A stretch of DNA of 64,000 bases from Escherichia phage 236Ecol005PP, in sequence record PP434423.1. One strand, given 5' to 3'. Below the pieces are notes generated by a model that was not told where the DNA came from, made no database searches, and worked only from the letters and a program-made list of their open reading frames with translations. Of this stretch, positions 11,272 through 62,834 are shown one piece after another; within the stretch, counting starts at the first letter, position 1, and each line of letters starts with the position of its first letter. The position numbers and the translations under genes are program-made.

Positions 11272-11874
11272 TTATAGATTAAATCCTTCAAAATCAAGAG
11301 TATAGATAGTGTATGTTGAATACTTTTTATACTCATATCTATCTGCAATTCTAAATACACTTCCAGCTGGTATCATTACTTCTTGTTCATCTGAAACTAA
11401 TTCCATATTACGATAGCGATGGCTATCCGGAAACTTAAAACTTGGACTGTATTCTTTACAACGTAGAGCTTTTATAGCATACTCCTGAAAATTAAATACC
11501 ATAGGAGCTTTGAATTCAAAAATAACTTGTGTGTTGTATTCTAATCCAGAAGCAAAATGCAGAGCTATATTTTTATCATATGAAGCTGATACTACTTTAT
11601 CGAATGTAATAATATCAATTCCTTGATTTAACGCCTGCTTAGTCTCAACTGGAACACCTCTCCAAAGAGGTTTATCATTTGGAACCAAACGAGATTTGAT
11701 TATTTCATTTAACCAAGAATGATCGTCTGGCTTATTAGTAATACAATGAATTAAAAGTTCAATTTCAGATAAATTAAATCCTTCAGAAAGTAATTCTTCA
11801 CGAATAGAAGCACGCACCGATGCATCCATTGATTTGATTTTAAAATCTTTTAATTGCATTGCTGAATATTTCAT
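11272..11874 (-). CDS. modA: ADP-ribosyltransferase ModA
   Basis: 200 aa; R ... S-x-S ... EQEVMIP (R-S-EXE ART motifs). Confidence 0.6.
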   Translation of the reverse strand: MKYSAMQLKDFKIKSMDASVRASIREELLSEGFNLSEIELLIHCITNKPDDHSWLNEIIKSRLVPNDKPLWRGVPVETKQALNQGIDIITFDKVVSASYDKNIALHFASGLEYNTQVIFEFKAPMVFNFQEYAIKALRCKEYSPSFKFPDSHRYRNMELVSDEQEVMIPAGSVFRIADRYEYKKYSTYTIYTLDFEGFNL

Positions 11875-12494
11875 TCAACTACCTCAATATCATACACTTT
11901 AAATGTTCCAAACGAATCGTGTAATTTTTCTTTTGAAATAGAAGTTATTTTATACTTTCCAATTGGAATCATCCATTCTTGTTCATGTACAATCATCATT
12001 AAGTTATCAGTACGTTCTGAATCTAATCCATCAGTATCTTCATATGTATACTTAAACTCAGTATTAGGAGAAGAAAGTATAATATCGCTGATATGGTCAG
12101 AGTAATTAAAAGCTTTATCAGTTTTTAAGCGAAGTACTATTTCAGTGAAATATTCAGCATAAGAAAAAGAACACGCTGTATGCAAACTAGTAGTAAATGA
12201 ATCTACTCTGTTCGTTGAAAACACTTCTCCAACTTGTAAATCTTTAATGAGTTCTTTTGTCGATTTTGATATACCACGATATAGCTGATAAGGCGATTTA
12301 GTTAAATGCTTTTTAACGATTTTATTCAACTGCCGATGAAGAGCTTCATTCTTTTTGGCTTCCATGCATTGCCAAAGAACTGACTGCTCAAAGTCAGTAA
12401 ATTTTTCACAGACCTTTTTATACATATCATATTGAAAATCAACGCTTTCAGCTTTTATAGATAACTGTTCAACATCTGCGGGATTAATAATCAT
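11871..12494 (-). CDS. modB: ADP-ribosyltransferase ModB
   Basis: 207 aa from second ATG; R ... STT ... EQEWMIP motifs; paralog of modA. Confidence 0.6.
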   Translation of the reverse strand: MIINPADVEQLSIKAESVDFQYDMYKKVCEKFTDFEQSVLWQCMEAKKNEALHRQLNKIVKKHLTKSPYQLYRGISKSTKELIKDLQVGEVFSTNRVDSFTTSLHTACSFSYAEYFTEIVLRLKTDKAFNYSDHISDIILSSPNTEFKYTYEDTDGLDSERTDNLMMIVHEQEWMIPIGKYKITSISKEKLHDSFGTFKVYDIEVVE

Positions 12495-17618: not shown

Positions 17619-18230
17619 TTAACCTCTATTCATAAAAGCATTAAAAATTTGGTCATCAATAGACTGTTTTTCTGATGGTAATTCATATCCACATATTACA
17701 ATTTTGTGATCAATATCAAAATACACAGAAGCAATATGATTAATGATGTTTTCAGTAAAGTCTAAATCAACATCAATATCTTTTTGACCACAGCCCAAAG
17801 GATAAATAATGCGAGTAATTCGATTATCTTTAACAAAGATTCCACCGACATACTCTGTGCTGCGTTTAAAGTCTACACGCCGACGAAATGAAAAATATTC
17901 AGGCTCTTTATGAGCTCGGCTCATAGGACACAACGAGTAACTAGAATAAGAGATGTCAAATCCTACGCCTTCAATATGAGCCAAAGTATCATGATTAAAC
18001 CAATTATAATCGTACGCCAAATCCATTAAATTATAATATGTAAAAGGCACCGGATTAACATCATTAGTCACAAGCATGTAATTAGCAACTGCTATAATTT
18101 CATTGTTTTTAACGAATACAAACCGCGATTGATGTGAATGACCTGGACCCGCGTTTTCACGATTAATGATATAACACTGGGCACCTTTATATTTGTATGT
18201 ATCTTTGCACTTGTGCATTTGATAGAGCAT
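17619..18230 (-). CDS. hypothetical protein (61.2 position)
   Basis: 203-aa ORF. Confidence 0.5.
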   Translation of the reverse strand: MLYQMHKCKDTYKYKGAQCYIINRENAGPGHSHQSRFVFVKNNEIIAVANYMLVTNDVNPVPFTYYNLMDLAYDYNWFNHDTLAHIEGVGFDISYSSYSLCPMSRAHKEPEYFSFRRRVDFKRSTEYVGGIFVKDNRITRIIYPLGCGQKDIDVDLDFTENIINHIASVYFDIDHKIVICGYELPSEKQSIDDQIFNAFMNRG

Positions 18231-57307: not shown

Positions 57308-57492
57308 TATTCCACCACATATGAAAGAGAGAATATTGCACACGCCATATGAATTGCAGCTTCATCACACATATCATAACGTTTCTTAAGAAGTTCTACA
57401 AGTTCTTCACTAGTAACTTCATCCATGTCGACGAAAAAATCACCATTAATGATGACGTAGATATTTCCTTCTTGATTAAGTGCTTCAATTTT
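57307..57492 (-). CDS. hypothetical protein
   Basis: 61 aa from ATG at 57492 ([10 protein letters not shown]) with GAGGAG SD, downstream of early promoter. Confidence 0.4.
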
Positions 57493-57520
57493 CATGATGT
57501 TCTCCTCTTTATCCGATGGT

Positions 57521-58534: not shown

Positions 58535-59116
58535 CTAACCGAGCTTTTTAGTTAATTCATTCCAATGTTTTCTACACAAAGAAACATAAATTTCATCACC
58601 AATACAGATTTGATTACCTTCTTTAACTGGTGTTCCATCTTCCATTAATCGAGCCGTCATAATAGCTTTTTTACCACAATGACAAACTGCTTTTAGTTCA
58701 ATAAGTTTATCTGCAATCGCTAAAAGTTCTTTAGAACCTTCAAATAATTTTCCAGCGAAATCAGTCCTTAGACCATAAGCCATAACAGGAACATTGTATG
58801 TATCGACAATTCGGCTTAATTGATGCACCTGTTCAGTTTTTAAAAACTGGGCTTCATCTACAAATACGCAATGAATATCTTTTTGTGCTTCAGCCCATTT
58901 ATAGAACTCGAAAATATCCATATCATCTGTAATAATATTCGCTTCCTGCTTAATTCCAATGCGAGAAACGACTTCACAGACAGAATCACGAGTATCAATA
59001 GCAGGCTTAAGAACTAATACACTCATTCCACGTTCTTTATAATTATGCGCAGCAGTCAAAAGAGAAGCAGATTTTCCAGCATTCATTGCTGCATAAGTAA
59101 AAATTAAACTCGCCAT
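58535..59116 (-). CDS. tk: thymidine kinase
   Basis: 193 aa; P-loop AAMNAGKS and C-terminal zinc-binding cysteines. Confidence 0.9.
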   Translation of the reverse strand: MASLIFTYAAMNAGKSASLLTAAHNYKERGMSVLVLKPAIDTRDSVCEVVSRIGIKQEANIITDDMDIFEFYKWAEAQKDIHCVFVDEAQFLKTEQVHQLSRIVDTYNVPVMAYGLRTDFAGKLFEGSKELLAIADKLIELKAVCHCGKKAIMTARLMEDGTPVKEGNQICIGDEIYVSLCRKHWNELTKKLG

Positions 59117-59125
59117 ATCACCTTC

Positions 59126-59332
59126 TTAAAGCGTATTCACATAAGCTATTAATTCGTTTTCTTTCTTATCAAACCGGTCAGCAAATTCTTCTTGCTGTTC
59201 GGGAGATAGCGGGCCGTATTCATCATAAAAGGTGTTTGCTTCTGTATGCTCATCTAGAAGTTCATGGATAAGCTCAAACAATTTATCTTTTTGTTCTTTA
59301 CTCAGACTCATAACCATGTAACCTTTAAGCAA
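59126..59332 (-). CDS. hypothetical protein
   Basis: 68-aa ORF. Confidence 0.4.
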   Translation of the reverse strand: MLKGYMVMSLSKEQKDKLFELIHELLDEHTEANTFYDEYGPLSPEQQEEFADRFDKKENELIAYVNTL

Positions 59333-59520
59333 TATTCTTCTACATGTTGTTTACGACCTTTCTTATCAATAAAGGTATATTCAACGAATGTTCCAATGTA
59401 GTCTTTATCTACATCATGTGGACTATTAATTGGGCATTTAGTGCGGCAAATGCGTTCCCATTGACGAATAATTACTGCTTTGTTTTTAGGATCAAATGGA
59501 TGAGGGTAATGTACTTTCAT
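59308..59520 (-). CDS. hypothetical protein
   Basis: 70-aa ORF. Confidence 0.4.
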   Translation of the reverse strand: MKVHYPHPFDPKNKAVIIRQWERICRTKCPINSPHDVDKDYIGTFVEYTFIDKKGRKQHVEEYCLKVTWL

Positions 59521-59971
59521 AATCCACCACTATTAAATCAATATCAGGAGTAAACATGTCGATTAATTTAGAAACCTTATCCCAATCACCGCCAGCAATA
59601 CCACAACCTATGCGTGGGATGTAAATTACTGGTTTAAACAAAAGGGTCTCTGCCTGTAGATTTAATTCTATCATGCAGTTTACTAAAGCACCATAATCAA
59701 GATTAGGACCTGGTTCGTATTGTGTATACAGATTATAGCATATACCAAATCCCGCAGGACTATGTTTAAAAACAATAGACATATCGCCTAATTTATCACG
59801 AGAACCATATTCAGTAGTGGTTTTATCTATTTCTAAAATTTTAGGATAGGCCCTTGCTAATTGACCCGCTACGCCTGAACCCATAGTATGAAAACAATTG
59901 CATCCATGCGCAATATTTTTACCTTCAGTGAAAAGGGCGACAATATCGCCCTTGATATATTTTACAATCAT
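59492..59971 (-). CDS. macro-domain protein (ADP-ribose binding/hydrolase fold)
   Basis: 159 aa; NIAHGCNCFHTMGSGVAGQL and IGCGIAGG motifs. Confidence 0.55.
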   Translation of the reverse strand: MIVKYIKGDIVALFTEGKNIAHGCNCFHTMGSGVAGQLARAYPKILEIDKTTTEYGSRDKLGDMSIVFKHSPAGFGICYNLYTQYEPGPNLDYGALVNCMIELNLQAETLLFKPVIYIPRIGCGIAGGDWDKVSKLIDMFTPDIDLIVVDYESTLPSSI

Positions 59972-60309
59972 TTAGTACTCAATCCTCGATTATAAGAATC
60001 TACCAAACGGTCAACCATTGAATGACAAGCGGCTTTATCTTTCTCCTCCGCAACTGAACATTCTAAGGTATTCCACTTTTTAGCATATCGTTTTAATAAA
60101 GTATCGTTCTTGTATCTGCTTGATTTATCTCTTTCTCCGTCTTTATATGCATATATTAATTTCTGCGCAAATTCAGCTTGGCATGCTTTATTTTTCCCAC
60201 AGTAATCTGCCGCAGTGCGATTTACATATTCTCTAATTTCAGTATATGATGTATCTGCTAACGCAGAAAATGAAATTAATCCTATACATAAAACCAAAAT
60301 TTTAGTCAT
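59968..60309 (-). CDS. secreted hypothetical protein
   Basis: 113 aa with N-terminal signal peptide. Confidence 0.45.
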   Translation of the reverse strand: MTKILVLCIGLISFSALADTSYTEIREYVNRTAADYCGKNKACQAEFAQKLIYAYKDGERDKSSRYKNDTLLKRYAKKWNTLECSVAEEKDKAACHSMVDRLVDSYNRGLSTK

Positions 60310-61340: not shown

Positions 61341-61376
61341 AAAATTATACTACAGTCAAGAGGAAAAGTAAACAGT
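61341..61376 (-). promoter_or_regulatory. T4-type early promoter (GTTTAC / TATAAT) upstream of regB
   Basis: plus gtaaac 61368-61373, attata 61344-61349. Confidence 0.5.
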
Positions 61377-62508: not shown

Positions 62509-62834
62509 TTAGAAAATAAATTTATCCAAGATTGCTCTTTAATTAAAAATGGCTCAGAATCATATGCCATTAAACTTTGGGTAATTAGTCCTTTAAAAGG
62601 CCCATCAATAAATTCCATGGTAAAATATGGAATTTTATTCATTAATCTTGCATTAGGAGCAGTGCACAAAACTCTGCATCCTTTGAATACGCCTTTTTGT
62701 AATTTGTATTGCTTAGGATAAAATTCGCTCAAGACGTTGTTATTTGCCAAAATTTCAAAATGATTCACCAATTTATTTTTAATAGTTTTTGGCGAAAAAT
62801 AAAGATATTCGAAAAGTTGCGTGTCTGTCATCAT
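62505..62834 (-). CDS. hypothetical protein
   Basis: ORF from internal ATG ([10 protein letters not shown]). Confidence 0.4.

Follow-up and report, generated by a model that had tools for sequence, protein, structure and literature searches.

In phage T4, a transposon screen on a DarTG2 host returned tk.4 as the single significant match, and a clean tk.4 knock-out was sensitised to DarTG2; the gene was renamed adfM, for anti-DarT factor Macrodomain (bioRxiv 10.1101/2025.11.20.689424). That its product removes ADP-ribose from DNA is the same authors' inference from structural similarity to Mycobacterium tuberculosis DarG (bioRxiv 10.1101/2025.11.20.689424). T4 lacking both adfA and adfN (gp30.3) is still DarTG2-resistant (PMC11825919), which fits the sensitivity of the tk.4 knock-out. 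The gene is therefore not new: its macro/A1pp annotation is decades old, the T4 GenBank label reading 'phosphatase; contains A1pp phosphatase motif', and the anti-DarTG2 role of the T4 ortholog was reported in 2025.

The name AdfM has also been given to PhiKZ gp104, a solitary phage macrodomain that counters DarTG2 and removes thymidine-linked ADP-ribose in vitro, with reduced activity in the N23A mutant (PMC13309987, Cell Rep 2026). Human TARG1 also reverses thymidine ADP-ribosylation by DarT (PMC9411070). The Streptomyces coelicolor protein SCO6735 (PDB 5E3B) takes thymidine-linked ADP-ribose off DNA and rescues E. coli from DarT (PMC9411070), frees PARP1 of Glu/Asp-linked mono-ADP-ribose in vitro (PMC5087735, PMC9411070), and shows no activity towards guanosine-linked or 2'-OH-linked RNA ADP-ribose (PMC11833690). 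With BT1257 of Bacteroides (2FG1/2AFC) it forms a subclass defined by a Gln/Ala pair (Gln85/Ala130 in SCO6735, Gln82/Ala128 in BT1257); Ala130, in the phosphate loop RIGCGLAGG, replaces Asp125 (PMC5087735). SCO6735 Q85A and Q85E are dead and N27S is nearly inactive, while the dead Q85A still inhibits DarT by binding, and does so more strongly than DarG K80A or TARG1 K84A (PMC9411070). In the authors' proposal, the Gln places the distal ribose and cleavage starts with a water held by the backbone (PMC9411070).

We analysed a window (the whole stretch under study, 64,000 nucleotides) of Escherichia phage 236Ecol005PP, sequence record PP434423.1, in which the original prediction, made from the letters and their open reading frames, had placed a 159-aa macro-domain protein upstream of tk. 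The ORF finder lists this ORF on the minus strand with an ATG start (Table 1), and the motifs quoted for it match the translation exactly, namely GDIVALF (residues 8-14), NIAHGCNCFHTMGSGVAGQL (19-38) and IGCGIAGG (121-128). It is no chance ORF, because it matches Pfam Macro PF01661 (E=1.1e-7; 32.2 bits, where the gathering score is 22; positions 2-117 of the 118 in the profile) and PHROG 335 (E=3.5e-71, labelled 'phosphatase'), has 790 homologs in the protein collection and has relatives in 2771 phage records by tblastn. Over a 3-kb stretch around the ORF, identity to T4-like Escherichia phages is 98.5%. T4 proteins mapped onto the window keep their T4 order, with flanking genes 96-100% identical to T4 in unchanged order, and the ORF fills the T4 tk.4 slot between vs and tk.3, aligning over its full length with T4 Tk.4. 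From this position we assign it as the tk.4 ortholog of Tequatrovirus type (Tk.4/AdfM). Its location upstream of tk holds in the transcriptional sense but not as adjacency, since two small ORFs (tk.2-like and tk.3) intervene.

Table 1. Features of the tk.4 locus and of other ADP-ribosylation genes in the window, with identities to T4 proteins
Feature	Position	Strand	Remarks
ModA ortholog	11275-11874	-	T4 ModA match, 97%
ModB ortholog	11874-12494	-	T4 ModB match, 96%
AdfA (T4 gp61.2 ortholog), Anti-DarT factor A	17619-18230	-	Pfam PF23813, 431.9 bits
tk, thymidine kinase	58535..59116	-	99.5% identical to T4 Tk
Second mosaic patch	59060-59311	-	T4 tk.1 absent; tk.2 ortholog (Pfam DUF7438) 54% identical; bounds 59060-59300 in the sliding comparison
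tk.2-like ORF	59126-59311		between tk and tk.3
tk.3 (DUF7202), immediately downstream of tk.4	59308..59520	-	95.7% identical to T4 Tk.3; Pfam DUF7202 132 bits
CDS of macrodomain protein (tk.4/adfM ortholog), 159 aa	59492..59971	-	
Overlap of tk.4 3' end and tk.3 start	59492-59520	-	29 nt
Divergent tk.4 segment, ~codon 38 to end	59521..59860	-	~50% nt identity to T4; sliding identity and alignment; flanks ~97%
Phosphate-binding loop P119-R-I-G-C-G-I-A-G-G128	59588..59617	-	A126 at TARG1 Asp125 position
N80-L-Y-T-Q84	59720..59734	-	Q at catalytic Lys position of TARG1 (K84) and DarG (K80)
Gly-rich loop M30-G-S-G-V-A35 after strand 2	59867..59884	-	G33 and A35 119/119; M30 115/119; G31 111/119
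HGCNC motif, codons H22-G23-C24-N25-C26	59894..59908	-	H22, G23, N25, C26 invariant 119/119
ATGA overlap, vs stop codon and tk.4 start codon	59968..59971	-	TCAT on + strand
vs (valyl-tRNA synthetase modifier), immediately upstream of tk.4	59968..60309	-	96.5% identical to T4 Vs, and annotation
Sigma-70 promoter-like site TTTACT-17-TATAAT, upstream of regB	61344..61372	-	consensus scan; consensus match only
rI.-1, rI, rI.1, vs.4			100% identical to T4
vs.1			99.4% identical to T4
regB			99.3% identical to T4
vs.6			98.3% identical to T4
vs.3			96.7% identical to T4

The genes regB, vs.1, vs, tk.4, tk.3, tk.2 and tk form an unbroken minus-strand run. The stop codon of vs and the start codon of tk.4 share an ATGA, and translation of tk.4 is probably coupled to that of vs; at the other end tk.4 runs 29 nt into tk.3, against 4 nt in T4, because the C-terminus of the window allele is longer (…YESTLPSSI). 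Consensus scans, which returned no more promoter or terminator sites than in shuffled sequence, placed a promoter-like site upstream of regB, a candidate early promoter of the regB-vs.1-vs-tk.4-...-tk run, and no minus-strand terminator-like site between it and tk. We infer that tk.4 is expressed early. Farther out, the alignment to T4 breaks at 62540-62600 and at 57440-57500 (21-27 gap columns), which suggests that more indels separate the window from T4 past vs.6 and around mobD.5/rI.-1.

The AF2 model of the protein (pLDDT 94.3, pTM 0.89) has the three-layer alpha/beta/alpha macro fold, and Foldseek with this model returned TARG1 at the top (E 4.9e-10), with BT1257, Poa1p and DarG at 1e-7 to 1e-9. 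Structure prediction had been proposed as the check on the macro-domain reading, to be abandoned if another fold emerged; a macro fold was obtained, and HMM, high-confidence structure prediction and fold searches agree. The protein is a macrodomain of the ALC1/TARG1-like class; its nearest neighbours in structure and sequence are TARG1, DarG, SCO6735/BT1257 and Poa1p, and not the MacroD, PARG or macroH2A types. The best PDB neighbours by sequence are of the SCO6735/BT1257 type (phmmer E 2e-10 for BT1257, profile E 3e-20). TARG1/OARD1 (4J5R/4J5S), matched at TM 0.72-0.84, has the motif-1 His and the PRIGCG loop in common with the window protein. The label 'RNase III inhibitor'/YmdB (MacroD type, O-acetyl-ADP-ribose deacetylase), seen in some records, was rejected at 13.6 bits against an NCBIfam cut-off of 291.

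For residue-level comparison, the reference sequences were checked against the PDB (the M. tuberculosis DarG macrodomain was identical; TARG1 gave 334.8 bits over residues 2-152). In the alignments Q84 ('LYTQ') stands opposite TARG1 K84 and DarG K80 ('FPTK'), and A126 opposite TARG1 D125, so that the catalytic dyad Lys84/Asp125 of TARG1 becomes Gln84/Ala126. The column of Q84 holds Q in BT1257 and K in TARG1, Mtb DarG, Taq DarG and PhiKZ gp104. N25 corresponds to Asn27 of SCO6735 and to Asn23 of PhiKZ gp104. Q84, N25, H22, G23, C26, N80 and Y82 are invariant in all 119 family members, down to ~35% identity; G33, G122 and G124, invariant in alignments of 51-52 sequences, are kept in 119, 118 and 118 of the 119 in the larger set. 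The GxG loop of MGSGVA type is part of the ADPr-binding cleft in macrodomains (PMC9503650). The Gln/Ala pair, together with the Asn (Asn27 in SCO6735, where it locks the Gln rotamer), is common to the window protein and the SCO6735 subclass. The original prediction had named absent catalytic residues as evidence against itself. Judged by the TARG1/DarG set they are indeed replaced (Lys by Gln84, Asp by Ala126), but those of the SCO6735 subclass are present, and because that subclass is active on thymidine-ADPr DNA (PMC9411070) the objection does not apply. What the present analysis adds to the T4-type protein is an active site that, from these alignments, is Gln-type (SCO6735-like) and not Lys-type (DarG-like).

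The likeness to SCO6735 has limits. Val/Ile25, a subclass hallmark according to the SCO6735 authors (Ile in BT1257), is Gly23 in the window protein, and this Gly is invariant in the Tk.4 family; the role of Val/Ile25 has been assigned to its backbone carbonyl, and function may therefore survive Gly23. After the Gln, the mobile loop of SCO6735 extends ~5 residues further and bears Lys89/Lys94, which the window protein lacks; aligned with BT1257, the window protein reads 'TQYE-----PGPNLDY' against 'GQHGIYKDSKGLPPIRY'. The absence of these two features of proposed importance, Val/Ile25 and the long loop, counts against the same catalysis. The settings differ as well, an apparently early phage gene here and a DNA-damage-inducible bacterial gene for SCO6735. 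A Tk.4-type family member (P0117, 41% identical) lies on the chromosome of Pelagimonas phthalicica (L004 6001-6459), where no DarT-like neighbour was found; the gene stands alone in a set of housekeeping genes (redoxin, peptidase M23, Trp halogenase, biotin synthase), which recalls the 'orphan guard' situation of SCO6735. A second homolog (P0105) lies on phage-like contigs, and the two homologs examined in this search for a bacterial homolog beside a DarT gene are too few for generalising.

Membership in DarG was considered and rejected (structures compared: T. aquaticus 5M31/5M3E, M. tuberculosis 5M3I). On the NCBIfam equivalog NF048014, whose cut-off is 250, the window protein scored 26.6 bits; its Gln84 replaces the catalytic Lys80, and the PADLOC DarG model gave 28.2 bits over only positions 2-144 of 329, the C-terminal DarT-binding domain being absent. 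No darT lies next to tk.4, whose neighbours are vs and tk.3. PhiKZ gp104, in contrast, is DarG-like, with the Lys in 'MFPTK' and a PADLOC DarG score of 132.9 bits, and BLASTP of the window protein against it gave fragmentary 23-bit matches only. Whereas gp104 is imported into the phage nucleus, T4-like phages build none. Judged by sequence, the T4-type and PhiKZ AdfM proteins are different lineages, probably independent recruitments under one name.

The window protein and T4 Tk.4 (NP_049723) are of the same length class and fold and have all family-invariant residues in common, but they are only 59% identical in amino acid sequence, the window protein being 4 aa longer, in a neighbourhood of ~97% nucleotide identity. 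The first ~37 codons of the window gene are T4-like, and the divergent remainder is bounded by the DNA for the conserved GSGVAGQL motif and by the tk.3 start. Conserved tk.3 sits between this segment and the second mosaic patch, the two divergent patches lying ~200 bp apart. Megablast retrieved the divergent tk.4 segment from 343 phage records, and in 301 of these the identity is >=90%; RB10, Sf21, teqdroes and slur13 are among the carriers. The window carries a common, non-T4 major tk.4 allele, and there are at least two strongly divergent alleles in Tequatroviruses. The sharp mosaic boundary could reflect selection by different host toxins, with the two alleles differing in the DarT2 variants or ADP-ribose linkages that they neutralise, an idea to which we give a low probability; if it is true, the substrates of Gln-type phage macrodomains might extend beyond thymidine-ADPr DNA to uracil- or phosphate-linked RNA ADP-ribose or to Glu/Asp-linked protein ADP-ribose.

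We consider it likely that the window gene encodes an early, single-domain ADP-ribosylglycohydrolase of Gln type that reverses DarT2 marks on phage ssDNA. A role in countering ADP-ribosylating defence, among the options raised in the original prediction, is borne out by the DarTG2 sensitivity of the T4 ortholog knock-out (bioRxiv 10.1101/2025.11.20.689424). In the proposed mechanism, tk.4 would be expressed early from a transcript shared with regB, vs.1 and vs, starting at a codon that overlaps the vs stop. The DarT2 of a host DarTG2 system would ADP-ribosylate thymidines of single-stranded phage DNA and so block replication; Tk.4 would hold this ADP-ribose in the cleft formed by its MGSGVA and PRIGCGIAGG (phosphate) loops and would then hydrolyse the ribose-thymine bond, giving the normal base back. 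Catalysis would be of SCO6735 type, using no nucleophilic lysine: Asn25 would fix Gln84, Gln84 would place the distal ribose, and the attack would come from a water held by the backbone. Tk.4 may, in addition, bind DarT2 directly and inhibit it. The T4 allele, the sole one tested genetically, is the 59%-identical one, and divergence over about two thirds of the protein counts against transfer; by analogy, we presume an activity of the window allele equal to that of T4 Tk.4, and likewise the catalytic details.

The modA and modB genes that had been said to accompany the macrodomain in this phage are both in the window (Table 1); their coordinates overlap at a single base, the way T4-type ATGA/TGATG junctions do, and no Pfam model matched either ortholog at E<=0.01. 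AdfA of the window has 95% identity to its T4 counterpart; it lacks five residues (PKVNV) close to the C-terminus and keeps T4's 'NIINHIAS' stretch. AdfN (gp30.3) lies outside the window. The window carries two anti-DarT factors, AdfA and Tk.4/AdfM.

Three other functions were weighed. Were the protein to disarm DarT2 or another toxin chiefly through binding, acting as a stoichiometric inhibitor or as a sponge for ADP-ribose or an NAD derivative, with hydrolysis secondary or absent, it would resemble the dead SCO6735 Q85A that still inhibits DarT (PMC9411070) and AdfA, T4's other anti-DarT factor, which acts by binding (PMC11825919); the mosaic allele, whose divergent part makes up most of the surface, is also a pattern that an interaction-driven arms race could give. 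We nonetheless think this improbable, since Q84, N25, H22, G23 and the phosphate loop are strictly conserved among the 119 homologs, even at identities as low as 35%, which points to conserved catalysis and not to a changing interface, and the window protein lacks the DarT-binding C-terminal domain of DarG.

An equally slight probability goes to a phosphatase acting on the small metabolite ADP-ribose-1''-phosphate (Appr-1''-p), like yeast Poa1p, whose substrate is a by-product of tRNA splicing and 2'-phosphate removal. The T4 GenBank and PHROG 335 labels say as much, and the H-x-C-N-C motif is common to Poa1p (HSCNC), of which an H23A mutant was built for structural study. Those labels, however, are annotation transfer and not an assay; the sole phenotype known for the ortholog is that its loss makes the phage sensitive to a toxin that ADP-ribosylates DNA (bioRxiv 10.1101/2025.11.20.689424), and the Gln84/Asn25 pair is as in the DNA-active SCO6735 (PMC9411070). 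T4 RNA repair by the Pnkp/Rnl1 pathway is not known to leave a 2'-phosphate, so no phage source of Appr>p is expected, which argues against the phosphatase.

Least probable of all is an eraser of protein ADP-ribosylation, whether of Alt/ModA/ModB marks on host proteins or of host toxin marks: ModA and ModB are in the same window and SCO6735 cleaves Glu/Asp-linked mono-ADP-ribose on PARP1 in vitro (PMC5087735, PMC9411070), but Alt, ModA and ModB target arginine, for example RNAP alpha Arg265 (PMC8120803), whereas the characterised relatives of Tk.4 act on thymidine-DNA and Glu/Asp-protein ADP-ribose, which leaves the earlier suggestion that the protein reverses the phage's own ModA/ModB marks without support; Arg-ADPr cleavage is not reported for TARG1/ALC1-like members in the literature considered and is the role of DraG-like enzymes (PMC8120803); 47 kb separates tk.4 from the mod genes, with which it is not co-organised; and in the transposon screen tk.4 was dispensable except on DarTG2 (bioRxiv 10.1101/2025.11.20.689424).

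With removal of DarT2 marks from phage DNA as the likely function, the correct label for this gene would be anti-DarT2 macrodomain (Tk.4/AdfM), and not the 'phosphatase' or 'RNase III inhibitor' of many GenBank records. Since the T4-type AdfM belongs to the Gln-type branch, mutational work belongs on Q84 and N25 and not on a lysine, and with one name, AdfM, for Gln-type T4 Tk.4 and Lys-type gp104, annotation transfer would mislead on mechanism. Because AdfA, ModA, ModB and Tk.4 occur together in one window, the phage stacks several ADP-ribosylation-related functions.
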